From contig JAGHSI010000015.1 in NCBI GenBank assembly GCA_018065925.1, forward strand, positions 1-42,675: 42,675 nucleotides of DNA, given 5' to 3'. Each line of letters begins with the position of its first letter. Position 1 is the stretch's first letter. Of this stretch, positions 2,543 through 40,791 are shown piece by piece. Below the pieces are notes generated by a model. The model was not told the origin of the DNA and did no database searches. It saw nothing but the letters and a program-made list of their open reading frames with translations. This DNA is from Candidatus Limimonas coprohippi (GTDB lineage: Bacteria > Bacillota > Clostridia > Oscillospirales > Acutalibacteraceae). Both the position numbers and the translations under genes were made by a program.

Positions 2543-2565
2543 CGAACATTTGTGTTTAATGTTCG
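2543..2565 (+). promoter_or_regulatory. Inverted repeat CGAACATT-N7-AATGTTCG just downstream of the recA -10 (candidate LexA/SOS operator with atypical spacing)
   Basis: Perfect 8-bp inverted repeat whose outer CGAAC/GTTCG arms match Cheo-box half-sites. The spacing is not the canonical GAAC-N4-GTTC. Confidence 0.4.
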
Positions 2566-2594
2566 AAGCTCTTTTGTTTACGGAGGATTATAAT

Positions 2595-3734
2595 ATGGCA
2601 GATAAGAATAAGGCTCTTGAAACTGCGATTGCCCAAATTGAAAGACAGTATGGTAAGGGTGCTATTATGCGCCTCGGACAGAATGCCAACTTAAATGTTG
2701 AAGCCATTTCTACAGGCTCATTTACTCTCGATATTGCTACGGGTATTGGCGGTTTACCAAAGGGCCGTATTATTGAGATCTATGGTCCAGAATCATCAGG
2801 TAAAACCACTCTCGCTCTCCACGCTGTTGCTGAGGCACAGAAAGTTGGTGGCGAAGCTGCATTTATCGATGCTGAGCACGCCCTTGATCCTGTATATGCT
2901 GCAAATCTTGGCGTAGATGTTGACTCACTCCTTGTGGCTCAGCCGGATAATGGTGAACAGGCTCTTGAAATTGCCGAGTCACTTGTTCGCTCGGGCGCTA
3001 TTGATATTTTGGTAGTAGACTCAGTTGCTGCCCTTGTTCCTCGCGCTGAAATTGAAGGTGAGATGGGTGACTCTCATGTTGGTCTTCATGCTCGTCTTAT
3101 GTCTCAAGCACTCCGTAAACTTGCAGGTGCTGTATCAAAGTCAAATTGTATTATCATTTTCATCAACCAGCTCCGTGAAAAGGTTGGCGTTATGTACGGT
3201 AACCCAGAAGTAACAACTGGTGGTCGTGCTCTTAAATTCTACGCATCTATGCGTATTGATGTACGTAAGATTGAACAGCTTAAGGCTCCAGGAAATGAGT
3301 TTGTAGGTTCACGTACACGTGCACGTATTGTTAAGAATAAAGTTGCCCCTCCATTCAAAGAGGCAGAGTTCGATATTATTTATGGTCGTGGAATAGCAAA
3401 AGAAGGCGAAATCCTTGATGCCGCTGTATCTCTTGATATTATCCATAAGTCGGGTGCTTGGTTCTCTTATGGTGACCAGCGTCTTGGACAGGGCCGTGAA
3501 AATGTCAAGCAGTATTTGCTTGATAATCCTGATTTCATGGCTGAAGTTGAAAAGCAGGTACAGGCTCATCTTTCTGAACTTTCAAATCAGATGAAAGCAT
3601 CATACAAAGGTGGTCAGATGCATGATACACCTGTAAACGCTCCTGCAAAAGTATCAGAGGAGGAGGCAACTCCAAAAACTCCTACATCAGCTGCTTCAGC
3701 AAAAGCAAAACTTGATATTACGGTGGATGACTAA
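2595..3734 (+). CDS. recA: Recombinase RecA
   Basis: ATG at 2595 follows GGAGGA. Contains [28 protein letters not shown], Walker [10 protein letters not shown] and the FINQLREK region. The C-terminal tail is low-complexity (Ala/Lys/Ser/Pro-rich) and extended. Confidence 0.97.
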
Positions 3735-3735
3735 A

Positions 3736-4377
3736 ATGCTCTTAACTGCTAAACACGGTAGAGGAAATAAGATTCACTTATCAATTGACGGGGAATATGC
3801 CATAACAACAACCGAACGGGTATGGTATGATTCCCCGTTTTCGGATAATTATGAGATAAGTGAAGAGGAGTGGCGCGAACTCTGTGACACTATTAATTTC
3901 GAAAAGATGTACGAGCGTGCTCTAGATCTTTTAGAACTTCGCGACCACTCACAAAAAGAAATACTTGATAAGCTCGTCGTAAAGTTTGGGCTGGACAAAA
4001 AAGAACAAGCAAAGCTCGTTTTGGAGAAACTCTCCGAAAACGGTTTGCTTGATGATGAACATTTTGCTAGCATCTATGCCGACGAGCTTATAAGAAGAAA
4101 GCACGTAAGTCCAGCGGGATTGCGTGCCGCTTTGTCAGCTAAAGGAATAGACAGAAAAATATCTGATATCATCATTGAAGAAGCAAATATTGACTCGGTT
4201 GAGTCTATTAATATTTTGCTCGATACGAAATTCAAAACGGCTGACCTTCTTGATGAGAGACAGTGTGATAAAGTTGTCACCTCGCTTTATAGACTTGGCT
4301 TTATGCTCAGTGACATTCGAGATGTTCTCGCCGAACGTCAGCACATCCTCCGTCTCGAGCTTTTGGAAAATATGTAG
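3736..4377 (+). CDS. recX: Recombination regulator RecX
   Basis: Lies immediately downstream of recA. Helical-repeat protein containing ALDLLELRDHSQKEILDKL. The start is ambiguous: ATG 3736 is preferred because GGTGGA lies 8 nt upstream, with ATG 3727 as the alternative. Confidence 0.82.
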   Translation: MLLTAKHGRGNKIHLSIDGEYAITTTERVWYDSPFSDNYEISEEEWRELCDTINFEKMYERALDLLELRDHSQKEILDKLVVKFGLDKKEQAKLVLEKLSENGLLDDEHFASIYADELIRRKHVSPAGLRAALSAKGIDRKISDIIIEEANIDSVESINILLDTKFKTADLLDERQCDKVVTSLYRLGFMLSDIRDVLAERQHILRLELLENM

Positions 4378-4483: not shown

Positions 4484-5821
4484 TTGCCTCTTAAGTTATT
4501 TGATAACTATCTTAAAAATTTCATATCAAATGATGAAATCCTGGGCATGCAGGCTGAAGTTACAGCTGCACATGAACTTCTCCATACAGGAAAGGGCCCT
4601 GGAAATGACTTCATAGGTTGGGTTGATCTTCCAGTTGATTATGATAAGGAAGAGTTTGCTCGCATTAAAGTGGCTGCAGACAAAATCAAGAAGAACTCAC
4701 AGGTGCTTGTTGTTATAGGTATCGGTGGTTCTTATCTTGGAGCGCGTGCAGCCATTGAATTTTGTAAGTCGCAAAATTACAACCTGCTCTGCAAAGATAC
4801 CCCACAGATTATCTTCTCCGGTAATACTATAAGTTCCACAACTTTAAATGAGATTATGGATCTTATCGACGGAAAAGACTTCTCGATAAATGTTATTTCA
4901 AAGTCTGGCACTACTACAGAGCCAGCCATCGCTTTCCGTGTATTCCGTGAACTTGCTATTGCAAAGTATGGTGAGGAAGGCGCGAAAGACCACATCTTCG
5001 TTACAACTGATAAAGCTCGTGGAACACTCAAAGCTCTTGCTGATGAGGTTGGATATGAGACTTTTGTAGTTCCAGATGATGTTGGTGGTCGTTACTCAGT
5101 ACTCACAGCAGTTGGACTTCTTCCTATTGCTGTCGCTGGTATCGATATTGATGCTCTTATGAAGGGCGCACAGGATGCTCGCGTTGCTTTCTGCGACGCT
5201 GACATAGAGAAGAATGACTGCTATAAGTACGCTGCTATTCGTAACGTTCTTGCTCGCAAAGGTAAAACAGTTGAAATGATGGTTTCTTATGAGCCTTCAT
5301 ATACCATGATGAATGAATGGTTTAAGCAGCTTTATGGTGAATCAGAGGGTAAAGACGGAAAGGGAATATTCCCTGCATCTGCTATCTTCTCAACTGATCT
5401 TCACAGCCTTGGTCAGTATATTCAGGATGGTCAGAGACTTCTCTTTGAGACGGTAGTTACTTTCAAAAATCCTACACGTGAATATATCATTAAAGAGGAT
5501 GCTGCAAACGTTGATGGACTTAACTTCCTTGCTGGTCGTGGAATGTCTTTCGTAAATCGCAAGGCTTTTGAGGGTACTGTACTTGCTCACAACGATGGTG
5601 GAGTTCCGAATATCGTTCTTGAGGCGGACGCCATGAACGAATATGAACTTGGCTATATGATTTATTTCTTTGAAAAAGCTTGTGCTATTTCCGGTTATAT
5701 TCTTGGTGTAAATCCATTTGATCAACCGGGTGTAGAGAGCTATAAGAAGAACATGTTTGCTCTTCTTGGTAAGCCTGGCTATGAGAATGAAAAAGCTGCT
5801 CTTGAAGCTAGACTTAAATAA
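4484..5821 (+). CDS. pgi: Glucose-6-phosphate isomerase (short Bacillus-type)
   Basis: TTG start with AAGGAG 8 nt upstream. Collinear from residue 1 with the remembered B. subtilis Pgi ([60 protein letters not shown]). Confidence 0.95.
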
Positions 5822-8527: not shown

Positions 8528-9862
8528 ATGTCAAGACCAGTAGTGGCTATTGTTGGTAGACCAAATGTCGGTAAATCAACACTTTTTAACAAACTCATAG
8601 GAAAAAGGCTCTCTATTGTTGATGACACTCCAGGTGTAACAAGAGATCGTATTTATGGCGATTGTGAATGGTTAGGACATAATATGCTTCTTGTTGATAC
8701 AGGCGGTATTGAGCCATATTCCGATGACATTATTCTGTCACAGATGCGTCGCCAGGCGCAGCTCGCAATTGATTCGGCAGACGTAATTATTATGGTTACT
8801 GATATACGTGATGGCGTTGTTGCAACGGACCAGGAGGTCGCAACAATGCTTCAAAAGAGCAGTAAGCCATTAGTACTCTGCGTAAACAAGTGCGATACGA
8901 CTGGCGAACTTCCGGCTGACTTTTATGAGTTCTATAATCTTGGTCTTGGAGATCCTATTCCAGTATCTGCAAGCCATGGTCGTGGCACTGGAGACCTTCT
9001 TGATGCTGTACTTCAGTATCTTCCAGAGGATGCTGGCGAGGACTATGAGGATGACACTATAAAAGTCGCTGTTATAGGAAAACCAAATGTAGGTAAATCA
9101 TCTCTTATAAATGCTATTTGTGGCGAAAATCGTGCAATTGTTTCTGATATTGCCGGTACAACTAGAGACGCAACAGATACTATGGTTGAGAACGAACATG
9201 GCAAGTTTGTCTTTATTGACACTGCTGGACTTCGTAGAAAATCAAAAGTTGATGATGCCATTGAAAAATATAGCGTTATCCGTGCTCGTATGTCGGTTGA
9301 ACGCGCTAACGTATGTGTTATTATGATTGACGCAACCGAGGGCTTTACTGAGCAGGACTCAAAAGTTGCTGGTATCGCACATGAACTTGGAAAGGCATGC
9401 ATAATTGCTGTTAACAAGTGGGATGCCGTTGAAAAAGATGGCGAGACAATGCAGAAAGAGCGTAAGAAGCTTATGAATGATTTTTCATTTATGTCATATG
9501 CTCCAATCATTTTTATTTCTGCAAAAACTGGTCAGCGTCTTGAACAGCTCTTTGAGCTTATTAAATTTGTTGATGACCAGAATGCTATGCGTATTTCTAC
9601 AGGTAAGCTTAATGATGTACTTGCTGCTGCCACTGCAAGAGTTCAACCGCCTACAGATAAGGGCAAGCGTCTTAAGATTTACTATATGACTCAGGCTTCG
9701 ACACGTCCACCAACGTTTGTCTGCTTTGTTAACTCAAAGGATCTTTTCCACTATAGTTATCAAAGATACTTAGATAATCAGATAAGGGAGGTATTCGGAC
9801 TTGAGGGAACACCTACTAGATTTGTTATCAGGGAAAGAGAAGAGAAAAAAGGTAGAAGATAA
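8528..9862 (+). CDS. der: Ribosome-biogenesis GTPase Der (EngA), two tandem G domains
   Basis: GRPNVGKST and GKPNVGKSS P-loops, DTGG and DTAG motifs, NKCD and NKWD motifs, KH-like C-terminus. Confidence 0.97.
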   Translation: MSRPVVAIVGRPNVGKSTLFNKLIGKRLSIVDDTPGVTRDRIYGDCEWLGHNMLLVDTGGIEPYSDDIILSQMRRQAQLAIDSADVIIMVTDIRDGVVATDQEVATMLQKSSKPLVLCVNKCDTTGELPADFYEFYNLGLGDPIPVSASHGRGTGDLLDAVLQYLPEDAGEDYEDDTIKVAVIGKPNVGKSSLINAICGENRAIVSDIAGTTRDATDTMVENEHGKFVFIDTAGLRRKSKVDDAIEKYSVIRARMSVERANVCVIMIDATEGFTEQDSKVAGIAHELGKACIIAVNKWDAVEKDGETMQKERKKLMNDFSFMSYAPIIFISAKTGQRLEQLFELIKFVDDQNAMRISTGKLNDVLAAATARVQPPTDKGKRLKIYYMTQASTRPPTFVCFVNSKDLFHYSYQRYLDNQIREVFGLEGTPTRFVIREREEKKGRR

Positions 9863-28615: not shown

Positions 28616-28658
28616 ATTACTTGTTAACTTCATTTATTATAAAGAGGGGTTGTTTAAT

Positions 28659-29369
28659 ATGGCACCTAAATTTAAACGCATTTTATTAAAACTCTCTGGC
28701 GAAGTCCTTGCCGGTGAGCAGGGCCACGGCTTTGACTTCGACGTTATAACCGACATCGCAAAAGCTGTGAAGCAGATTTCTGATTCAGGCTGCGAAGTCG
28801 GCATAGTAATCGGCGGAGGCAATTTCTGGCGTGGCCGTTCAAGCGGATCAATGGATAGAGTACGAGCTGACTCAATTGGTATGCTCGGCACAGTTATGAA
28901 CTCTATTGCCTTTGCAGACACATTGGAGCAGCTCGGCTGTAAGACTAGAGTTTACACTTCTGTAAACATGGCTCCACTTGCAAAGTTCTTTGATTCACAT
29001 GAGGCAAGAAAAGATCTTTCAGATGGTTATGTTACTATTTTTGGTGGCGGAACAGGAAGTCCATTTTTCTCAACTGATACTACAGCATCGCTTCGTGCTG
29101 CTGAGATTGAGGCAGAGGTAATCTTCAAAGCAACAAATGTTGACGGCGTATATGACAAGGATCCTAATAAATATCCTGATGCCGTTAAGTTTGATGAGAT
29201 TTCACAGTCGGATCTTCTTAACAAGGGACTTGCTGTTATGGATGCATCAGCTGCATCAATGTGCCGTGACAATGGTATAAACATTTTTGTATTTAACCTT
29301 ACAGACCCACAGAATATTGTTCGCGCTGTAAACGGTGAGAATATTGGAACACTCGTTTCTAGTAAGTAA
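28659..29369 (+). CDS. pyrH: UMP kinase
   Basis: ATG 28659 follows AGAGGGG. Contains KRILLKLSGE, a GGGNFWRG motif and GGGTGSPFFSTDTTA. Confidence 0.95.
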   Translation: MAPKFKRILLKLSGEVLAGEQGHGFDFDVITDIAKAVKQISDSGCEVGIVIGGGNFWRGRSSGSMDRVRADSIGMLGTVMNSIAFADTLEQLGCKTRVYTSVNMAPLAKFFDSHEARKDLSDGYVTIFGGGTGSPFFSTDTTASLRAAEIEAEVIFKATNVDGVYDKDPNKYPDAVKFDEISQSDLLNKGLAVMDASAASMCRDNGINIFVFNLTDPQNIVRAVNGENIGTLVSSK

Positions 29370-29398
29370 TAAATTCAAATTCTAATAGAGGTGACATT

Positions 29399-29953
29399 AT
29401 GGAAACTATTATCGCTAAGACAGAAGAAAGAATGGGCAAAGCAGTTGATTCATTAGTACATGATTATGCTGCTATCCGCGCAGGCCGTGCAAATGCAGGT
29501 GTTCTTGATAAGATTATGATTGACTACTATGGTGTACCAACACCAATTCAGCAGGTTGCTGCTATCTCAATTGCAGAAGCTCGTATCCTTGTTATTCAGC
29601 CATGGGATAAGATGATGATTCAGCCAATCGAAAAGGCAATTCAGACATCAGATATCGGTATCAACCCACAGAACGATGGTACTGTTATCCGTCTTATGTT
29701 CCCAGCTCTTACAGAGGATAGACGTAAGGAAATTGCAAAGGATATTGCAAAGCGTGCTGAGGAGGCTAAGGTAGCTGTTCGTAACGTTCGCCGTGACGGT
29801 ATGGAAGAACTTAAGAAACTCAAGAAGGATAATGCCATCACTGAGGATGATCAGAAGATTGGTGAGGACAAGATCCAAAAGGCTACAGATAAGAAAGTCA
29901 AAGAGATTGAAGAGATTGCTTCTGCTAAAGAAAAGGAAGTAATGTCTGTTTAA
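29399..29953 (+). CDS. frr: Ribosome recycling factor
   Basis: 184 aa with IRAGRANAGVLD, DYYG..TP and VRNVRRD motifs. Confidence 0.97.
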   Translation: METIIAKTEERMGKAVDSLVHDYAAIRAGRANAGVLDKIMIDYYGVPTPIQQVAAISIAEARILVIQPWDKMMIQPIEKAIQTSDIGINPQNDGTVIRLMFPALTEDRRKEIAKDIAKRAEEAKVAVRNVRRDGMEELKKLKKDNAITEDDQKIGEDKIQKATDKKVKEIEEIASAKEKEVMSV

Positions 29954-29991
29954 TTTTTCCTAAAACTTAAGTTGACTTTTGTAGGTGTATT

Positions 29992-30013
29992 AGGGGCGAG
30001 ATTCGCCCCTTTG
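29992..30013 (+). terminator. Weak terminator or attenuator between frr and uppS
   Basis: AGGGGCGA-gat-TCGCCCCT 8-bp stem followed only by TTG. Confidence 0.4.
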
Positions 30014-30042
30014 CACCTTAATTTGATATTTGGGGTGAGTGT

Positions 30043-30771
30043 ATGAGTAATTTACCACCTAAAGAGTTTATGCCAAAGCATATTGGCATAATTATGGACG
30101 GCAACGGTCGATGGGCCTCTGAGAGAGGCCTACCTAGAACAGAAGGTCACGTTGCCGGCGCTAAGGTATTTAGAAGAATAAGTGACTACTGTCATGAAAT
30201 CGGTATTGATGTTGTGACCTTCTATGCCTTCTCTACAGAGAACTGGCGTCGTCCACCAACGGAGGTGGCTGCGCTCATGAAGCTTTTCAAAGAAAATTTG
30301 ATAGAGGCGGATGAGATAAAATACGACCGACAAAAGGGAGGATATATTCTTCGCTTTATTGGTGATACTAGCGCCATTCCAAATGAACTTCAGAAGTTGG
30401 TCTCAAAGACACAACTTGACGCTATAGATGAGAATACCACTGTTATAAATATTGCTTTGAATTACGGTGGTAGACAGGAGATTCTTCATTCTGTAAAACA
30501 AATTGCCGAGAGGGTTGAACGAGGAGAACTTAAGGCTTCAAAAATTACTGCGGAAGATATCGCCGCTGGACTTTATACGGCAGGTCAACCTGACCCAGAT
30601 CTTATAATTAGACCGAGCGGGGAACTTAGACTCTCCAATTTTTTGACATACCAATCAGCATATTCAGAACTATATTTTTCAAACGTCCTATGGCCAGATT
30701 TCACAACTGACGATCTGGACGAGGCAATACTTGATTACGCAAAGAGAAATAGACGCTTTGGTGGCGTCTAG
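30043..30771 (+). CDS. uppS: Isoprenyl transferase (undecaprenyl diphosphate synthase)
   Basis: HIGIIMDGNGRWA, FSTENWRRP, IRPSGELRLSNFL and RRFGG motifs. Confidence 0.95.
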   Translation: MSNLPPKEFMPKHIGIIMDGNGRWASERGLPRTEGHVAGAKVFRRISDYCHEIGIDVVTFYAFSTENWRRPPTEVAALMKLFKENLIEADEIKYDRQKGGYILRFIGDTSAIPNELQKLVSKTQLDAIDENTTVINIALNYGGRQEILHSVKQIAERVERGELKASKITAEDIAAGLYTAGQPDPDLIIRPSGELRLSNFLTYQSAYSELYFSNVLWPDFTTDDLDEAILDYAKRNRRFGGV

Positions 30772-30782
30772 AGGAGACTATT

Positions 30783-31631
30783 ATGAAACAAAGAGTTATT
30801 TCGGGAATTGTTCTTGCTATTATTCTTATTGGAACTTGGTACTTCCTTGTTGACACTTTTATTTTTGATGTGCTCTTTGCACTCCTTTCAGCAGGTGCTT
30901 GCTTTGAGCTCACAAGATGTTTTAAACTCCCAAATAAATTTATGCAGGTGGCTGCAATAATCTTCTCTTTTGCAGTATCACTTGGTCTTGTATATCAGTC
31001 ATATTGTCCAGTTAGCGCTGTTATTGTGCTTTATGTAATCTTCCTTGCACTTATGACTGTAGTTAATTATCCAGAAATTAAATTTGAGCATCTTGCTGGC
31101 ACAGTTTATGCATCGCTAGTTATTCCAACGGCATTTACTATGGCACCAATCATTGCTGACCTTTATAAGAGCTACGACTTCATCGATAAGATGGAATGTA
31201 AGTTCTTTGTTTGGCTTGTTGTTGCAGGTTCTCTTTTTACAGATGTATTTGCTCAACTTTCAGGAATGGCCTTTGGCAAACATAAAGTAACACCAAATCT
31301 CTCACCAAAGAAAACTTGGGAGGGTTGTATTGGCGGTGTGATTTGTGCACTTCTTTTAAATCTACTTTGGCTCTTCCTCTATAATAAGTTCTTTGCAACT
31401 CAAGTATTCTCATTGCCAGTTTGGTTCTACTGCTTACTCTCTGTATTTATGTCAGTTGCATCAATGTTTGGTGACTTGATTGCCTCTCTTATCAAGAGAA
31501 ATTATGAGATTAAAGATTATTCAAAACTTATTCCAGGACATGGCGGAATTATGGACCGTTTTGACAGCGTGATTATGGTTATGCCATTGTTCTATGCGAT
31601 GATTACCCTTTATGGAGCGAGTGTGGCTTAA
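30783..31631 (+). CDS. cdsA: Phosphatidate cytidylyltransferase
   Basis: Polytopic membrane protein with the KRNYEIKDYSKLIPGHGGIMDRFDS signature. Confidence 0.9.
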   Translation: MKQRVISGIVLAIILIGTWYFLVDTFIFDVLFALLSAGACFELTRCFKLPNKFMQVAAIIFSFAVSLGLVYQSYCPVSAVIVLYVIFLALMTVVNYPEIKFEHLAGTVYASLVIPTAFTMAPIIADLYKSYDFIDKMECKFFVWLVVAGSLFTDVFAQLSGMAFGKHKVTPNLSPKKTWEGCIGGVICALLLNLLWLFLYNKFFATQVFSLPVWFYCLLSVFMSVASMFGDLIASLIKRNYEIKDYSKLIPGHGGIMDRFDSVIMVMPLFYAMITLYGASVA

Positions 31632-32786
31632 ATGACAGATAAACTTTGTATTCTTGGTTCTACGGGTTCAATAGGTACTCAGGCACTTGATGTTGCCCGT
31701 AAACATAACATAAAAATAACTGCTCTTACTGCTTCATCAAGTGTTGATAAACTTGAGGAGCAGGCGCGTGAATTTAAACCAAATCTTGTTGCTATGCTTG
31801 ATGAAAATGCTGCAAAGGATTTGAAAGTTCGTCTTCAGGATACCGATATTAAAGTACTTTCGGGTATTGGTGGTATCTGTGAATGTGCGCGCGAGGAGTC
31901 GGCTGACACCGTGCTGAACTCGGTTGTTGGCATGGCGGGTCTTGTTCCAACCCTTGACGCTATAGACGAGGGTAAGAACTTAGCCCTTGCCAACAAGGAG
32001 ACACTTGTTGCCGGTGGTCAACTCGTTATGAACGCCGCGCGCGAAAAAGGCATTAACATCTACCCTGTTGATAGTGAGCACTCCGCAATTTTTCAGTGCC
32101 TTCGTGGTGCACCAAAGGATAGAGCACTTAAGAGAATTTTGCTCACAGCATCTGGTGGACCTTTCTTTGGAATGACAAGAGAGGAACTTAAAGATGTAAC
32201 TGCAGAACAGGCACTTAAACATCCGAACTGGGAGATGGGCGCAAAAATCACAATCGACTCTGCGACTATGATGAACAAAGGTCTCGAGGTAATTGAGGCA
32301 TGTTGGCTCTTTGGTGTCTCTCCAGATAAGATTAAGGTTGTTGTTCATAGGGAGAGCATCATTCATAGCGCAGTTGAATTTACTGACAATGCTGTGATTG
32401 CGCAACTTGGTCTTCCTGACATGACAATTCCTATTCAATATGCTCTCACTTATCCTGAGAGAACAGAGTCCCTTGCAGGAGAACTTGATCTTGCAACTCT
32501 TGGAACACTAACCTTTGCTGAACCAGATTATGAGACCTTTGATTGTCTTTCGGTTTGTAAGGAAGCAATCCGTAGAGGCGGACTATATCCTGCTGCTGCA
32601 AATTCAGCAAATGAGCAGGCAAACGCTCTTTTCCGAAAGGGAAAGATTGGCTTCCTTGATATCGGTGAGCTTGTCGGCGAGGCAATGGAGAACTGTGGTA
32701 GAGCGGGTGATTACTCTCTAACAGACGTACTTGAACTTGACAGCGAGGCAAGAGCTTTTGTATCAAGAAATATCAAAAATAGTTAA
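31632..32786 (+). CDS. dxr: 1-deoxy-D-xylulose 5-phosphate reductoisomerase
   Basis: ILGSTGSIGTQ, LANKE, PVDSEHSA and LTASGGPF motifs. The start abuts the cdsA stop. Confidence 0.96.
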   Translation: MTDKLCILGSTGSIGTQALDVARKHNIKITALTASSSVDKLEEQAREFKPNLVAMLDENAAKDLKVRLQDTDIKVLSGIGGICECAREESADTVLNSVVGMAGLVPTLDAIDEGKNLALANKETLVAGGQLVMNAAREKGINIYPVDSEHSAIFQCLRGAPKDRALKRILLTASGGPFFGMTREELKDVTAEQALKHPNWEMGAKITIDSATMMNKGLEVIEACWLFGVSPDKIKVVVHRESIIHSAVEFTDNAVIAQLGLPDMTIPIQYALTYPERTESLAGELDLATLGTLTFAEPDYETFDCLSVCKEAIRRGGLYPAAANSANEQANALFRKGKIGFLDIGELVGEAMENCGRAGDYSLTDVLELDSEARAFVSRNIKNS

Positions 32787-32807
32787 TTGATGAAAGGGTG
32801 AGGTGAA

Positions 32808-33863
32808 ATGCTCGCTGATATTTTTAATACTGTATGGCCAATCTTAGTTGCCATTCTATTTTTCGGCGTGATTATTATGTCACACGAGCTTGGACATTTT
32901 ACTTTTGCCCGTATTTTTAAAGTTAAAATAAATGAGTTTTCTATCGGAATGGGCCCGGCAATTCTTAAAAGACATAAAGGTGATACTGATTATTCATTGA
33001 GACTTTTACCAATTGGTGGATATGTTGCGATGGAGGGAGAGGATGAGGACAGTCCTGATCCCAATTCGTTCAACTCAAAACCATGTTGGCAGAGAGCCAT
33101 TATCATTGTCGCAGGTGCAACTGTAAATATCATCTGCGGTATCATTATTATGGCAATTATCCTTGCTACTTCTGAACTTATTGGCACACCAACAATTGTT
33201 GGATTTGCTGATAATGCTGCAAGCGAGGCGGGCGGTCTCAAAGTTGGCGATAGAATTGTCGCTATTGGAAATGATAAGATTCATACAGAATATGACCTCT
33301 CGTACTTTATGATGAGAGATAAGGATGCTGTTTTAGATTTTGTTGTTGAACGTGATGGAAAACTTACAAATGTTAAATCGGTTAAATTCGATACTGTGGA
33401 GTCTGACGGTTCAACAACAATGGTTTACGACTTTGCCATTGTTGGCATAGAGCCAACATTCAAGAGCGTAACAAAATACGCTTTGCTCGATTCGTTCTCT
33501 ATCGGACGAATCGTATGGCTAAGTCTTTACGACCTTGCAACCATGAGATTTGAACTCAACGATCTCTCGGGTCCAATTGGCACAGTTGATATTATTGCTG
33601 ATACAACAACTGATGCCGTATCGACAATGGACTTTTCAAGACTTCTCACTATTATGGCGCTTATTGCTATTAATATAGGTGTGTTTAATCTCATACCATT
33701 CCCAGCGCTTGATGGTGGACGTTTTCTCTTGATTATTATTGAGGGCATAACTGGTAAAAAGCTTCCTGCAAAAGTGGAAGCTGCAATAAACAATGCAGGC
33801 CTTGCACTTCTTCTTGGCTTGATGGTTGTTGTTACAGTAAATGATATTTCGAAGTTCTTTTAA
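32808..33863 (+). CDS. rseP: RIP (site-2) zinc metalloprotease RseP/RasP
   Basis: HELGHF motif, an internal PDZ segment and FNLIPFPALDGG. Confidence 0.92.
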   Translation: MLADIFNTVWPILVAILFFGVIIMSHELGHFTFARIFKVKINEFSIGMGPAILKRHKGDTDYSLRLLPIGGYVAMEGEDEDSPDPNSFNSKPCWQRAIIIVAGATVNIICGIIIMAIILATSELIGTPTIVGFADNAASEAGGLKVGDRIVAIGNDKIHTEYDLSYFMMRDKDAVLDFVVERDGKLTNVKSVKFDTVESDGSTTMVYDFAIVGIEPTFKSVTKYALLDSFSIGRIVWLSLYDLATMRFELNDLSGPIGTVDIIADTTTDAVSTMDFSRLLTIMALIAINIGVFNLIPFPALDGGRFLLIIIEGITGKKLPAKVEAAINNAGLALLLGLMVVVTVNDISKFF

Positions 33864-33873
33864 GGAGTAGCAT

Positions 33874-34935
33874 ATGGAATTTTCAAAACCTAGAAGAGAA
33901 TGTCGAGAAGTAAATGTCGGCGGAGTAAAAATTGGCGGTGGAGCACCAATAGTAATTCAGTCTATGCTCAATGCCCTCTCGTCTGACATAGAGGGCAATA
34001 TTGCCCAGGCCAAAGCTTTGGAGGCAGCTGGTTGCCAAATTATCCGAATTGCTATTTCTAACAAGGAGGATATCGATTTAATCTATGCGCTCAAGGAGGC
34101 TGTTAGCACTCCTTTGGTTGCTGATATTCATTTTGATTACAGAATTGCACTTGCATCCATTGATGCAGGTATTGATAAAGTAAGAATTAACCCTGGTCAC
34201 ATTGGCGCCCGTGAAAATGTTGAGGCAGTTGTTGATGCATGTAAACGTCGTGGTGTACCTATTCGTATAGGCGTTAATTCGGGCTCTGTTGAGAGAGATT
34301 TGCTTGAAAAATATGGTGGTCCAACTCCAGAAGCAATGGCTCAGAGTGCGCTCAATCATGCCAAGATTTTAGAGGACTGCGACTTTTATGACACGGTTAT
34401 TTCAATCAAGTCATCCGACGTTAGAAATACAATCAACGCATACAGGATTGTCGCAAAGGAGTGCGACTATCCACTTCATCTTGGCGTTACCGAGGCTGGA
34501 ACCGCCTACAATGGACTTATCAAATCGTCCATTGGTATAGGTTCCCTCCTTGCTGATGGTATCGGTGATACCATCAGAGTATCACTTACCGCTGACCCAG
34601 TGGAGGAGATTCGTGCTGCGCACGATATCTTAAAGTGCCTTGATTTGATTGAAAATGAAGCTCAACTTATATCTTGCCCAACCTGTGGCAGGACTCAAAT
34701 TGATTTAATTTCAATCGCAGCAGAGGTTGAGAGTAGGCTTCGCAATGTACACAAGCCAATTAGGGTTGCAGTTATGGGATGCCCTGTAAACGGCCCGGGC
34801 GAGGCGAAAAATGCCGACATAGGCATAGCGGGCGGCAAGGGCTGTGGCCTAATTTTTAAAAAAGGTGAAATAGTAAAGAAGGTTCCAGAAGAGCAATTAA
34901 TTGATGAACTCTTCGCTGAAATAGAGAGGTTATAA
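33874..34935 (+). CDS. ispG: 4-hydroxy-3-methylbut-2-enyl diphosphate synthase
   Basis: Contains IVIQSM, RINPGH-type, ISCPTCGRT and MGCPVNGPGEA motifs. Confidence 0.96.
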   Translation: MEFSKPRRECREVNVGGVKIGGGAPIVIQSMLNALSSDIEGNIAQAKALEAAGCQIIRIAISNKEDIDLIYALKEAVSTPLVADIHFDYRIALASIDAGIDKVRINPGHIGARENVEAVVDACKRRGVPIRIGVNSGSVERDLLEKYGGPTPEAMAQSALNHAKILEDCDFYDTVISIKSSDVRNTINAYRIVAKECDYPLHLGVTEAGTAYNGLIKSSIGIGSLLADGIGDTIRVSLTADPVEEIRAAHDILKCLDLIENEAQLISCPTCGRTQIDLISIAAEVESRLRNVHKPIRVAVMGCPVNGPGEAKNADIGIAGGKGCGLIFKKGEIVKKVPEEQLIDELFAEIERL

Positions 34936-37900
34936 ATGCCAAATTTGGGAAAGAAAAGGATAAATGATATTTTCGGTACACTTTTGAATAGCAATTATCC
35001 TGAGAGTTTTAGATACGCAGAAATAACAGAAATGAAAATAAATAAGCAGACAAGGGAGCTTCGCTTGTCTGCGGTCTGTGCTGCATATTTTGATAAAGCT
35101 GATACAGTATGTGACAGTTTCGAGGAGGTTGTAAAATCTGCCTTGGAACTTGATAAAGTCATGATCAATCTCAGCGTTCCAGAAAAGGAAATTGCACCTT
35201 TGGAGGAGGCTCCTGCCGCCAACCCAATGGAGGCACTCCTTAAAATGCAAGCTGAGGTTGATGCTCAAAACATGATAGATAAGCAAAGGGAAATGGAGGA
35301 ACAGGAGGAGGCAAAGCCTCATCACGTTGAACCTGGCATTCCTCTCTATCTTGAAACTGCCAAGCTTATCTTTGGTCAAAAAATTGGCAAGATGCCAAAG
35401 AAAATAAGTGATGTTCACTACGATGATGGCCGTGTTGCAATTTGGGGCGACGTTTTCGGCCTTGATATTCGTGAAACTCGCGATAAGCGCAAGAAGATTA
35501 TAAACTTTAATATCAAGGATGACACAGGGGCTTATCCAATCAAGGTGTTCCAGCCAATCGCTGATGTTAGGGAACTCTGTGCCAATCTAAATGATGGCAT
35601 GTCGGTTATCATCCTTGGTGACGTAATCTATGACAACTATAAAAAGGAATACATTCTTGACGCCAAGGCTATTGCTAAGGTCAAGAAGATTGTACGTACC
35701 GATGACAGCGAGGAGAAGCGCGTCGAGTTGCACATGCACAGCAACATGTCCATGATGGACGGTATGTCTGATGCGGGCAAACTCGTTGAGCGCGCAGCCC
35801 AGTGGGGTCATCGCGCTGTTGCTATCACTGACCACGGCGTGCTCCAGGGTTACCCTGCAGCATTCCAAGCTGGTCATAAATTTGGTATAAAAGTTATCTA
35901 TGGTGTTGAGTCATATATCTATGATGATGTTAGAGATGGTGCACCACGTGAGTGGGACGACATACTCAAGAGTATCAAGGACCATCAGACGCATACATAT
36001 CACCAAATTATCTTGGTACTTAATAACACGGGCCTTAAAAACCTCTATAAACTCGTTTCTAAGGCTCATACGGAGCACTTTTATCACAGACCAATCACAC
36101 TCAAATCTGACCTCATCGAGCACCGTGAAGGCCTCTTTGTAGGTTCTGCCTGTGAGGCAGGTGAGCTCTATCGTGCGATAGAGGACGGCGAGAGTGAAGA
36201 GAGAATAAAAGAACTTGTTGATTTCTATGATTATTTAGAGATTCAGCCACTTGGAAATAATGCTTTTAAGCTTCGTCCGACTTTTGAGAAGGATAAGGTC
36301 ACAAAGCAGGAGGTACAGGTGCCTCCTCGATATGGTTCAATGCGTGAACTTGAGGATATCAACAGACGCATCTTGTCTCTTGCGATTGATGCGGGCAAGA
36401 TGTGCGTTGCAACCGGCGACGTTCACTTCCTTGAACCAGAGGATGCCAAGTACCGTACCATCCTTATGGCTGGTCAGGGCTATCGCGATGCTGAAATGCA
36501 AGCACCTCTTTATTTCAAAACAACAGACGAGATGCTTGCTGACTTTGCTTACCTTGGCGAGGATATGGCACGCAGAGTAGTTATTGAAAATCCTAATAAG
36601 ATTGCTGATATGGTTGAAAATATTCGACCTGTTCCAGCCGGAAACTTCCCACCATCAATTGATGGTGCGGAACAGGAACTTCAGGATCTCTGCTGGGCAA
36701 AGGCTAAAGATCTTTACGGCGATCCAGTTCCAGAATACGTATCTGAGCGTCTTTCAAAAGAGCTCACATCAATTATTAAAAATGGATTCGCCGTACTTTA
36801 TATGATTGCTCAGAAACTTGTAAAGAATTCTGAGGATCATGGTTATCTCGTTGGTTCACGAGGATCTGTAGGTTCAAGCTTTGTTGCACATGCATCAGGT
36901 ATTTCGGAAGTAAATCCACTTGCACCGCATTATCGCTGCCCAAAGTGTAAATATAATGAATTCTTTTTGGACGGTTCAGTGGGTTCTGGTTATGACCTCC
37001 CACCAAAGGATTGCCCAAAGTGTGGCACTCCTATGGCGCGTGACGGACACGATATCCCGTTTGAAACATTCCTTGGTTTCAAGGGCGACAAATCGCCTGA
37101 TATCGACCTTAACTTCTCTGGTGAATACCAGTCACGCGCACACCGTTACACTATCGAACTCTTTGGCGAGGACCATGTGTTCAAAGCAGGTACGGTTGCA
37201 ACCGTAGCTGATAAGACGGCTTTCGGTTATGCGAAAAAGTATCTTGAAGAACGTGGCATCATGGCAAATTCCGCTGAGGTTCAGCGTCTTACGAACGGTT
37301 GTACAGGTGTTAAGCGTACAACCGGTCAGCACCCTGGCGGAATGGTTGTTGTACCAAATGCCTATGATGTATATGACTTCACTGCCGTTCAGTATCCGGC
37401 CGATGATGCCGATAAGGGAATGATGACAACACATTTCGACTTCCATTTCCTTCACGATACAATTTTGAAACTTGATAATCTCGGACACGATGTTCCGACA
37501 ATGTACAAGTACCTTGAGGATATGACTGGCATTCCAGTTATGAGTGTCGATATCTGTGATCCTAAGCTATATGAACTTTTTACGAGTACAGAACCTCTTG
37601 GCATAAAGCCAGAGGATATCGACAACTGTGAGACGGGTACACTCTCAATTCCAGAGATGGGTACAGGCTTTGTTCGAGGTATGCTTATGGAGTGTAAGCC
37701 AAAGAACTTCTCTGACCTTCTCCAGATTTCTGGTCTGTCCCACGGTACTGATGTATGGCTTGGCAATGCGCAGGAGCTTATCCACAATGGCACCTGCACA
37801 ATTTCAGAGGTTATCGGTACACGTGACAACATAATGGTTGCGCTTATGCATTACGGTCTTGAACCGGATATGGCATTTAAAATTATGGAGATAGTGCGTA

Positions 37901-38535
37901 AAGGTAATGCTACAACCAAGCTTACCGAGGAGCATATCAAAGCAATGAAGGACAACAATGTACCAGATTGGTACATTGACTCTTGCTTTAAGATTAAATA
38001 TATGTTCCCAAAGGCTCATGCCGCAGCATATGTATCAGCTGCACTTCGCCTTGCTTGGTACAAGCTTTATAAACCTATTGAGTACTATGCGACATTCCTT
38101 ACAGTTCGAGGCGAGGACATTGATGCAAGCTCAATTTTGGCAAAGCCAGAGGAACTCTGTGCTAAAATTGCTGATATTAGTGCAAAGCCTAATATGAACA
38201 AGAAAGATGAAAATGAAATCATGTGTCTTCAAGTTGTGCTTGAAATGAAAGCACGAGGTGTAGAGTTCTTGCCGGTTGACCTCTATAAATCTAAGGCAAC
38301 TGTTTACACAATAGAGGACAACAAGATTCGTCTTGCATTTACATCGATTAAGGGTCTTGGTGCATCCGCTGCGACCTCTCTTGAGAAAGCAAAGGATGAC
38401 GGAGAGGGAGCATACCTCTCTATTGATGACCTTCAAAGACGTTCGGGAATCTCATCTGCTGTTGTGGCGTCCCTCAAGGAAATGGGCTCCCTCGAGGGTA
38501 TCCCAGAGAGTAGCCAGATGAGTTTGTTTGGTTGA
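34936..38535 (+). CDS. polC: PolC-type DNA polymerase III alpha subunit, apparently lacking the 3'-5' exonuclease insertion
   Basis: ATG abuts the ispG stop. Collinear with the remembered B. subtilis PolC: OB domain, PHP VELHMHSNMSMMDG / AITDHG, Zn module CPKC..CPKCG, PDIDLNFSGEYQ, KRTTGQHPGG, GLSHGTDVWLGNAQELI, KYMFPKAHAAAYV and C-terminal QMSLFG. It is only 1199 aa, with a ~25-aa linker where the exonuclease domain normally sits. Confidence 0.93.
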   Translation: MPNLGKKRINDIFGTLLNSNYPESFRYAEITEMKINKQTRELRLSAVCAAYFDKADTVCDSFEEVVKSALELDKVMINLSVPEKEIAPLEEAPAANPMEALLKMQAEVDAQNMIDKQREMEEQEEAKPHHVEPGIPLYLETAKLIFGQKIGKMPKKISDVHYDDGRVAIWGDVFGLDIRETRDKRKKIINFNIKDDTGAYPIKVFQPIADVRELCANLNDGMSVIILGDVIYDNYKKEYILDAKAIAKVKKIVRTDDSEEKRVELHMHSNMSMMDGMSDAGKLVERAAQWGHRAVAITDHGVLQGYPAAFQAGHKFGIKVIYGVESYIYDDVRDGAPREWDDILKSIKDHQTHTYHQIILVLNNTGLKNLYKLVSKAHTEHFYHRPITLKSDLIEHREGLFVGSACEAGELYRAIEDGESEERIKELVDFYDYLEIQPLGNNAFKLRPTFEKDKVTKQEVQVPPRYGSMRELEDINRRILSLAIDAGKMCVATGDVHFLEPEDAKYRTILMAGQGYRDAEMQAPLYFKTTDEMLADFAYLGEDMARRVVIENPNKIADMVENIRPVPAGNFPPSIDGAEQELQDLCWAKAKDLYGDPVPEYVSERLSKELTSIIKNGFAVLYMIAQKLVKNSEDHGYLVGSRGSVGSSFVAHASGISEVNPLAPHYRCPKCKYNEFFLDGSVGSGYDLPPKDCPKCGTPMARDGHDIPFETFLGFKGDKSPDIDLNFSGEYQSRAHRYTIELFGEDHVFKAGTVATVADKTAFGYAKKYLEERGIMANSAEVQRLTNGCTGVKRTTGQHPGGMVVVPNAYDVYDFTAVQYPADDADKGMMTTHFDFHFLHDTILKLDNLGHDVPTMYKYLEDMTGIPVMSVDICDPKLYELFTSTEPLGIKPEDIDNCETGTLSIPEMGTGFVRGMLMECKPKNFSDLLQISGLSHGTDVWLGNAQELIHNGTCTISEVIGTRDNIMVALMHYGLEPDMAFKIMEIVRKGNATTKLTEEHIKAMKDNNVPDWYIDSCFKIKYMFPKAHAAAYVSAALRLAWYKLYKPIEYYATFLTVRGEDIDASSILAKPEELCAKIADISAKPNMNKKDENEIMCLQVVLEMKARGVEFLPVDLYKSKATVYTIEDNKIRLAFTSIKGLGASAATSLEKAKDDGEGAYLSIDDLQRRSGISSAVVASLKEMGSLEGIPESSQMSLFG

Positions 38536-38552
38536 TATGAGGAGGAATAATT

Positions 38553-38864
38553 ATGATAGGACTTGGAAAATGGCAACTTGATATCTCTGTCCCAATGCTT
38601 AAGGTTCAACCAATTTTGATCATTGCAGACAACAATGGTAAATATGAATTTACAGTTGACGCAAGCGGCTTTGGCGTTACGCCAGCAATCAATCTTGTCA
38701 ATACTGTAGAAGAGGGCAACACTTTGAAAGTACGTGCGCAGGTACCTATGCTTAACCTTGGTGACATTGAGGGTAAGATTACTTTTGAGGGCGTGCATTG
38801 TACTGGTGAAGTCAATGTCCCAATGCTTGGTAAAATCACCGTCAAAGGTGTGAGAGTAGGTTGA
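38553..38864 (+). CDS. Hypothetical 103-aa protein with three VPML motifs
   Basis: GAGGAGG RBS. It starts 18 nt after the polC stop and ends 1 nt before the next ATG. SVPMLK, QVPMLN and NVPMLG motifs are present. The composition looks beta-rich. No family is recognised. Confidence 0.68.
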   Translation: MIGLGKWQLDISVPMLKVQPILIIADNNGKYEFTVDASGFGVTPAINLVNTVEEGNTLKVRAQVPMLNLGDIEGKITFEGVHCTGEVNVPMLGKITVKGVRVG

Positions 38865-39996: not shown

Positions 39997-40025
39997 TTGT
40001 ATGGTCACTATGTTAAGAGTATAAT
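39997..40025 (+). promoter_or_regulatory. Candidate internal promoter for the Nudix gene
   Basis: TTGTAT, 17-nt spacer, TATAAT. Confidence 0.45.
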
Positions 40026-40071
40026 AAACCCAAATTGTCTACGGCGCGTATGCGCTATCGGAGGGTATATT

Positions 40072-40791
40072 ATGCTTGGCAAATTTGTCAGGGTAAAGGT
40101 AACAACTCCGGTTGGTTCTGCAGATGAAAATGGTCTTATCTACAAACTGAATTACGGAGAAATTGATTTTGTTACCTCAAAGGGACGCCAAAAATTAAAG
40201 GCGTTTATCTTAGGCATTAACCATCCCGTTTCCACGTTTGATGGTCGAGTTAATGCTACCTGTGAAAAGAACGGGGAAATTTATTATCTTGTTGCTCCAA
40301 AGAGCAAAAGATTCATCATTCATGATATTAAGGACGCACTCTCGTTCTTTGAACCAGATGACATTACTTGTCTCTATGAACGTTCCTGTGGAGCTATTGT
40401 CTTTAGAAAGATAGGAGAGAGTTATCGCTATCTTCTTATAAAGAACAAGCGTAGCATTCATTGGAGTTTTCCAAAAGGTCATGTTGAAGAGGGGGAGACA
40501 GACGAGGACACTGCAATTCGCGAAGTGTTCGAGGAGTCTGGCCTTCATATTGACATAATTCCTGGTTTTAAGACCACCTCTGAATATCTCATTCAAGGTA
40601 GGGTTGAAAAAACAGTTAATATCTATGCTGCAAAAACTCAGGACACTAACACAGTTATTCAAGAGGAAGAGATTGAGGATTATGCATGGCTTCCTTTTGA
40701 ACAGGCATTAAAGCGCCTTAAGTTTGAAAATGATAAGAAGATTTTAACTGATGCTCGTGCATTCCTTCTTGAGAAGGGCTTAGTTGAATAA
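40072..40791 (+). CDS. Nudix hydrolase (Ap4A-hydrolase-like) fused to an unassigned ~100-aa N-terminal domain
   Basis: ATG 40072 follows GGAGGG. Nudix box GHVEEGETDEDTAIREVFEESGL is preceded by WSFPKGH. The N-terminal domain MLGKFVRVKVTTPVGS...LNYGEI is not confidently assigned. Confidence 0.87.
   Translation: MLGKFVRVKVTTPVGSADENGLIYKLNYGEIDFVTSKGRQKLKAFILGINHPVSTFDGRVNATCEKNGEIYYLVAPKSKRFIIHDIKDALSFFEPDDITCLYERSCGAIVFRKIGESYRYLLIKNKRSIHWSFPKGHVEEGETDEDTAIREVFEESGLHIDIIPGFKTTSEYLIQGRVEKTVNIYAAKTQDTNTVIQEEEIEDYAWLPFEQALKRLKFENDKKILTDARAFLLEKGLVE

Follow-up and report, generated by a model that had tools for sequence, protein, structure and literature searches.

The 42.7-kb stretch of DNA analysed here (the window) carries, at positions 34936..38535 of the forward strand, an uninterrupted open reading frame (ORF) for a 1199-residue PolC-type DNA polymerase III alpha subunit that has no DnaQ exonuclease (exo) insert. 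We conclude that an uncultured gut bacterium of the Oscillospirales (Acutalibacteraceae-like) has this ORF as its functional, orthologous polC, and that the ORF belongs to an exo-less class of PolC that has already been described. Many Gram-positive bacteria replicate their DNA with PolC, which is also a target of antibiotics. The DnaQ exonuclease that forms part of the protein is commonly regarded as its hallmark; this DnaQ-like DEDDh domain, set into the PHP domain, marks the typical architecture, which accounts for 86% of PolC proteins. An earlier note on this DNA, made from the sequence alone, had implied that a PolC without this domain might be new. That overstated the case, as the architecture was already published in 2013 (Timinskas et al., Nucleic Acids Research 2014, PMC3919608). 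What is new here is a member of the class from an uncultured Oscillospirales lineage, with the additional loss of an N-terminal subdomain; the exo-less architecture itself was known.

The earlier note proposed a search of the ORF with exonuclease-domain hidden Markov models (HMMs). A Pfam scan of the 1199-residue protein detected neither RNase_T nor any other DnaQ-like domain, even at E<=1. The identical scan found RNase_T in the exo-containing relative P0066 (1432 residues) at residues 414-569 with E=7e-41, so the negative result for the window PolC is not a problem of sensitivity. Regular expressions for motifs Exo I, Exo II and Exo III matched DVETTG, HNAGFD and HRAIDDA in P0066 and matched nowhere in the window PolC. 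The PolC equivalog model NF001688 aligned to the window protein in two stretches, with residues 348-1198 falling on profile positions 608-1444, so that the exo block of the profile was jumped. The sequence alignment to Geobacillus kaustophilus PolC (3f2b) ran as a single piece over the junction, while that to the full-length Enterococcus PolC (9qpc) broke into two pieces.

The junction lies between Glu325 (nucleotides 35908-35910) and His356 (nucleotides 36001-36003). In exo-containing relatives this interval is an exo-bearing segment of 212-217 residues; in the window PolC it is a linker of 30 residues (residues 326-355, positions 35911..36000, forward strand), SYIYDDVRDGAPREWDDILKSIKDHQTHTY. 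The linker was modelled confidently by AlphaFold2 (AF2), with a predicted local distance difference test score (pLDDT) of 89-93 and a short helix at residues 340-348, and the same length of 30 residues is seen in the closest relatives. The exo insert is missing in situ, and a structured 30-residue connector closes the PHP domain. The earlier note had claimed that no DnaQ-type exonuclease is present and had located the junction; both the absence of the domain, by Pfam, motifs and the skipped profile block, and the position of the linker were borne out.

The exo insert is not the only part of PolC that is missing. N-terminal subdomain II (NII, PF11490) was not detected by Pfam in the window PolC and was present in P0037 and P0066. 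Alignment showed a gap of about 65-80 residues at NII relative to the exo-less proteins P0016, P0024, P0037 and P0056 as well as to the exo-containing P0066, and residue 135 of the window protein pairs with residue 200 of P0066. The site of the missing subdomain (residues 83-134, positions 35182..35337, forward strand) consists of a disordered acidic stretch, with pLDDT <50 at residues 83-95 of the AF2 model, followed by a long helix at residues 97-126. NII is also missing in the closest relatives, P0001-P0011, which are 1164-1208 residues long. The window's own clade has thus additionally lost subdomain NII. Relative to P0066 the protein is 233 residues short: about 183 residues are missing from the exo region and about 65 from the N-terminus, and small differences in length in other places make up for part of this. 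Because there were two losses, the shortfall does not come from one domain, and the statements of the earlier note that every other PolC module is present and that the length matches one missing domain have to be withdrawn.

The rest of the protein is a PolC in sequence, domain order and predicted structure. It scored 1432 bits against NF001688 (cut-off 873) and 1309 bits against TIGR01405 (cut-off 1043), passing the curated cut-offs of both NCBIfam PolC equivalog models. Pfam placed PHP at residues 264-437, DNA_pol3_alpha at 580-850, the finger domain at 864-1008 and HHH_6 at 1108-1190. The order is of the PolC type and not of the DnaE type: the OB domain is N-terminal to PHP, and the Pol3 core and the tandem helix-hairpin-helix (HhH) domain follow. 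N-terminal subdomain I (residues 1-82, 34936..35181, forward strand, as are all segments of the gene) aligns with that of relatives and is modelled as an alpha/beta fold with pLDDT 81-88 over residues 11-80. The OB domain (residues 137-251, 35344..35688) gave a weak Pfam tRNA_anti-codon match at 180-244 (E=2.9e-4); the AF2 model shows the strands of a beta-barrel over residues 137-251 with pLDDT 85-93, and identity to P0066 in this region is 50%. The polymerase core of palm, thumb and fingers (36673..37959) contains the motifs PDIDLNF and THFDFH, the residues Asp722, Asp724 and Asp835, which we take to be the catalytic aspartates of PolC, and a zinc finger formed by Cys668, Cys671, Cys693 and Cys696; all seven residues are invariant columns in an alignment of 55 relatives. 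The tandem HhH domain (residues 1108-1190, 38257..38505) matched HHH_6 with E=9e-12, and the protein ends in a beta-clamp binding motif, QMSLF (residues 1194-1198, 38515..38529), in which Gln1194 and Phe1198 are invariant. This motif is of the QxxLF type, which is listed for PolC proteins in Table S1 of Timinskas et al. (PMC3919608). The AF2 model has a mean pLDDT of 80, with most of the PHP region at 84-96, and its best match in the PDB by Foldseek is the exo-deleted G. kaustophilus PolC 3f2b, with a template modelling (TM) score, normalised to the target, of 0.91-0.92. The losses leave the polymerase core, the zinc finger, the HhH domain and the clamp motif intact.

Orthology and probable repeated loss of the exonuclease insert

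The genes frr, uppS, cdsA, dxr, rseP and ispG, each identified by NCBIfam equivalogs, lie upstream of polC on the forward strand (29399..34935). The earlier note had read the context as uppS-cdsA-dxr-rseP-ispG-polC, and the equivalogs confirm this reading and add frr. In related loci with enough upstream DNA, the order frr-uppS-cdsA-dxr-rseP-ispG precedes exo-less and exo-containing polC alike. Since the two kinds of gene share one slot, the window gene corresponds by position to canonical polC as its orthologue, and the insert was lost in place. The view that the gene is not a stray paralogue holds as well: it follows rseP-ispG just as exo-containing polC does.

The source organism is uncultured and only 42.7 kb of it is visible, which leaves room for the idea that the gene is an artefact of assembly or binning, a pseudogene, or a secondary paralogue beside a full-length polC. 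We consider this idea extremely improbable. The ORF is in frame and uninterrupted, and an identical 1199-residue protein with the same neighbours is found on an independent Logan assembly (SRR10505697). The architecture is common to >110 related clusters, 54 species genomes and one cultured isolate. As to a paralogue, the gene occupies the slot of exo-containing polC, and Table S2 of Timinskas et al. gives 12 complete genomes in which a protein of the order N-terminal domain (NTD)-OB-PHP-Pol3-HhH, without exo, is the only PolC and is accompanied by a typical DnaE1 (PMC3919608). The earlier note had raised the possibility of an assembly deletion; the identical protein on the Logan assembly, the 113 exo-less clusters and the isolate show that the deletion is real. 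For annotation, this means that where polC is "short" in these lineages, the gene is genuine and not mis-assembled.

The distribution of the exo-less form was examined at two levels. Among the best 120 protein clusters, 119 of which are near full length, the insert is missing in 113 of the 119, with linkers of 20-38 residues, and is kept in 6. A survey of polC in related genomes, which the earlier note had recommended, found exo-less PolC in 54 of 80 related species-representative genomes and exo-containing PolC in 26. The exo-less genomes include Acutalibacteraceae, Candidatus Fimenecus, many metagenome-assembled genomes (MAGs) named "Clostridia bacterium", and the cultured Eubacterium coprostanoligenes ATCC 51222. 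The exo-containing genomes include Anaerotruncus, Ruthenibacterium, Subdoligranulum and Ruminococcaceae bacterium FB2012; the PolC of Ethanoligenens is also exo-containing. The nearest species genomes are a MAG from horse faeces, at 86% identity, and another that matches partially, at 94%.

To place the losses, we used a neighbour-joining tree of 76 PolC proteins built on 986 shared columns with the exo region left out; being distance-based, it represents a gene tree only. The exo-less proteins formed a single group in none of 100 bootstraps, and a single origin of the exo-less state was rejected on this count. The exo-less L039 paired with the exo-containing L056 in 93 of 100 bootstraps, and a large exo-less clade grouped with the exo-containing L064 in 88 of 100. 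Both the sequence and the length (16-38 residues) of the linker are clade-specific among exo-less loci. In one exo-less clade the linker NVSYKDLPSYH resembles NVDFKKVPSYH, the tail behind the exo core of exo-containing relatives, and this resemblance suggests that the connectors were fused after the exo core had been excised. The tree, the unrelated linkers and the Negativicutes cases in the literature together point to at least two to three independent losses. Within the group, the exo insert seems to have gone no fewer than two to three times.

Two observations on individual records were made in these alignments. L053 and L033, from the E. coprostanoligenes group, carry an extra insertion of about 15-30 residues just after the strand that holds the equivalent of His356 (for example, KADNSMPMRLDENWRPVMDEPEDGIIHRGRKNLY), and it displaces the otherwise conserved N-x-x-GLKNLY motif. 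L006, L007, L008, L026 and L071 carry the Firmicutes-type frr...ispG-polC locus under titles that name Paludibacteraceae, Muribaculaceae, Bacteroidaceae or Bacteroides, and these records are probably mislabelled or mis-binned.

A further group of PolC proteins has an insert of another kind. Nine PolC representatives from Clostridia MAGs (P0139, P0147, P0148, P0168, P0169, P0174, P0175, P0176 and P0229) contain 142-291 residues where exo would lie; several of these representatives are found repeatedly, in many assemblies. The DEDDh motifs are missing from all nine inserts, and a Pfam scan of the inserts returned nothing significant. A profile-profile comparison with hhalign gave a moderate link: inserts and exo domain aligned from one end to the other, with 86% probability (E=5e-6). 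All nine proteins keep the full PHP site. On these grounds the inserts look like catalytically dead relics of the exo domain, at an intermediate stage toward deletion. If confirmed, they would be counter-examples to the remark in a 2026 survey that inactivation affects the PHP domain of polymerase III alpha subunits and spares the DnaQ proofreader (PMC12926913).

The PHP metal site and its possible role in proofreading

The deletion leaves a PHP domain whose two parts contain a complete metal site. The N-terminal part (35725..35910) provides His266, His268, Asp275, His300 and Glu325, in columns that are conserved, and the C-terminal part (36001..36615, pLDDT mostly 84-96) provides His356, Cys406, Asp495 and His497, all four of which are invariant in the alignment of 55 relatives. 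All nine ligands (HHDHEHCDH) are therefore present, as the earlier note had claimed, and the 2026 survey classes PHP sites that match HHDHEH[C/H]DH as "active" (PMC12926913). The same nine residues are kept in 112 of the 113 exo-less close clusters and in 53 of the 54 exo-less species loci, where the sole exception is an ambiguous base call. A wider survey took in 150 representatives, the best at 50% identity, and the junction is covered in 140 of them. In this wider set the full PHP site occurs in 28 of 32 exo-less and 59 of 99 exo-containing representatives (odds ratio 4.7, p=0.005, a value not corrected for phylogeny). An aspartate in place of asparagine in the D-x-H motif of PHP was considered as a further correlate of exo loss and was rejected, since exo-containing clostridial neighbours all have the aspartate too; among the proteins compared, D versus N in this motif is a difference between Clostridia and Bacilli.

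The best-supported reading of these data, which we regard as having about an even chance of being correct, is proofreading in cis by the PHP domain of exo-less PolC. The reading draws on the conservation of the ligands, on where the losses occur and on a mutator in Clostridium thermocellum, the C669Y substitution in an exo-containing PolC, whose support for PHP proofreading is only indirect (C. thermocellum preprint). The domain, with its intact nine-residue trinuclear metal site, would act in the manner of the PHP exonucleases in Mycobacterium tuberculosis DnaE1 and Thermus DnaE. DnaE1, which is expected in this genome from the literature and with an intact PHP site, would be a second replicative polymerase. 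A clostridial PolC would normally combine a DnaQ insert with a PHP site that appears active; with an active PHP already present, the DnaQ insert would be redundant and free to decay and to be deleted, apparently more than once.

Several points weigh against this reading. The PHP site is just as complete in all 26 exo-containing species loci and in all 6 exo-containing close clusters, so its conservation is not specific to exo loss and could reflect a structural metal site. The site is degenerate in four exo-less representatives, P0181, P0214, P0237 and P0245, and an intact PHP is therefore not an absolute requirement; these four appear to lack both known proofreading sites. Stand-alone DnaQ homologues average more than three per bacterial proteome (PMC12926913). 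In the literature searched, we found no enzyme assay or biochemical study of any exo-less PolC, nor a demonstration of PHP exonuclease activity for any PolC. As a separate observation on the degenerate sites, that of P0237 (1178 residues) reads HRSLENSDQ and is shared by nine members of its cluster.

Two other explanations place fidelity outside the PHP domain of PolC. A separately encoded DnaQ/epsilon-like exonuclease might bind the exo-less PolC or the clamp and proofread in trans, the function having been relocated. This is the standard solution for DnaE1 of the Escherichia coli type, and it gains from the abundance of stand-alone DnaQ homologues noted above and from a view confined to a 42.7-kb window. 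We nevertheless rate it as quite improbable. PolC organisms typically have no separate epsilon subunit (C. thermocellum preprint), and no linked exo gene was found when a PolC exo-domain HMM, built from 26 exo inserts, was run at E<=10 on ORFs of at least 60 residues in the window and in the 80 loci. It matched only the exo-containing PolC proteins themselves, and it matched no ORF in the six frames of the 42.7-kb window nor in the 10-kb flanks on either side of the 54 exo-less loci; an exo gene split off near polC was rejected accordingly. Alternatively, exo-less PolC may do without any proofreading, with fidelity supplied by DnaE1 (through its own PHP exonuclease, in bulk synthesis or in trans editing) and by mismatch repair, and with PolC reduced to an auxiliary role. 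Timinskas et al. raised this idea, noting that some Clostridia have only DnaE1 and calling all exo-less PolC proteins clostridial (PMC3919608). It agrees with the additional loss of NII in the window PolC and with the few exo-less proteins that have lost PHP ligands too. We consider it unlikely, because the whole protein is strongly conserved, including the polymerase acidic residues, the zinc finger and the clamp motif, and because the gene stays in a core replication and translation neighbourhood. The nine PHP ligands, invariant in nearly all exo-less relatives, would also be hard to explain if they were functionless, though a structural role is possible.

Sequence tools do not separate PHP proofreading from a trans-acting exonuclease; conservation and the literature favour the PHP domain. 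A broader form of PHP proofreading in cis would be that in several lineages of Clostridia the PHP domain is the only proofreader of PolC, and that the DnaQ insert was shed more than once and step by step, from an active exo domain through a dead relic to a clean deletion, with the window PolC, which has also lost NII, as an end-point. We put this forward tentatively, as somewhat more likely to be wrong than right. If true, it would make available a naturally occurring system in which to test whether a PolC proofreads through PHP, and it would contradict the generalisation of the 2026 survey that the PHP domain, not the DnaQ proofreader, is inactivated in polymerase III alpha subunits. The commonness of exo-less PolC in abundant gut Oscillospirales raises the question of whether PHP does proofread in PolC, as it does in mycobacterial DnaE1, and a natural, compact exo-less PolC of 1199 residues would be a convenient substrate for such a test.

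Other features of the window

A 103-residue ORF (38553-38864, forward strand) begins 18 nucleotides past the stop codon of polC. It has no Pfam match, and its conservation directly after polC is limited to the closest relatives (L010, L001, L003, L043 and L004). A few genes further downstream lies a NUDIX hydrolase (39997-40791, forward strand) with an N-terminal extension of about 125 residues, which is syntenic in the nearest relatives. Its best NCBIfam similarity is to the 8-oxo-(d)GTP phosphatase MutT1, with E=5e-19 and far below the cut-off, and a link to sanitation of the nucleotide pool is speculative. Other content of the window is ordinary core genome and includes a tRNA (811-881), recA-recX (2550-4377), glucose-6-phosphate isomerase (4484-5821), the GTPase Der (8528-9862) and pyrH-frr (28650-29953).

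Comparison with known systems

The closest described systems are the exo-less PolC proteins of Timinskas et al., who found 6% of PolC sequences without the Exo insertion, all of them in Clostridia or Negativicutes save one additional PolC copy in Thermotogae (PMC3919608). In these two classes PolC occurs alongside DnaE1 instead of DnaE3, and DnaE1 was speculated to be the main replicase in organisms with exo-less PolC (PMC3919608). The window PolC has the traits that define this subclass: no Exo insertion, relatives in Clostridia (of the Oscillospirales type) and the canonical polC locus. In the portion of Table S1 accessible to us, the exo-less entries are two from Acidaminococcus with a PHP site of 9/9, and that of Acidaminococcus fermentans has 1191 residues and a clamp motif at the C-terminus (PMC3919608). 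As far as that portion goes, such proteins share with the window PolC the order NTD-OB-PHP-Pol3-HhH, all nine residues of HHDHEHCDH and a clamp motif at the extreme C-terminus. Their hosts, too, are anaerobic Firmicutes of classes that pair PolC with DnaE1. The window PolC differs from them in its origin from an uncultured Oscillospirales lineage, which was not found in that portion, in the absence of NII and in its clade-specific 30-residue linker.

Canonical PolC, as in Bacillus subtilis, G. kaustophilus (3f2b/3f2c) and Enterococcus (9qpc), belongs to the same equivalog and has the same domain order, zinc finger and clamp motif, and the G. kaustophilus structure is 47% identical to the window PolC in the Foldseek alignment. 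The window PolC differs in having neither the DnaQ insert nor NII. It also differs in the D-x-H motif of PHP, which reads TGDVHF in the window PolC and TGNVHY in the Geobacillus and Enterococcus enzymes; owing to this aspartate, the window PHP fits the "active" consensus HHDHEH[C/H]DH, whereas the enzymes of Bacilli do not (PMC12926913).

The best match in both sequence and structure is the engineered, exo-deleted PolC of G. kaustophilus (3f2b/3f2c/3f2d), in which a short connector joins the same two PHP elements. The 3f2b crystallisation construct is without both the NTD and Exo (Fig. 1 legend, PMC3919608). The deletion in the window PolC is similar to this engineered one. The G. kaustophilus deletion is man-made and closed by a Gly/Ser linker, whereas the deletion in the window PolC is natural and conserved and is closed by a helical connector of 30 residues. 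M. tuberculosis DnaE1 (5lew/7pu7) and Thermus DnaE resemble the window PolC in combining a complete nine-residue PHP site with the absence of an integral DnaQ domain. They are polymerases of the DnaE type, with the OB and C-terminal domains at the C-terminus, and they are more distant from the window PolC, at about 20% identity and a TM score of about 0.55.

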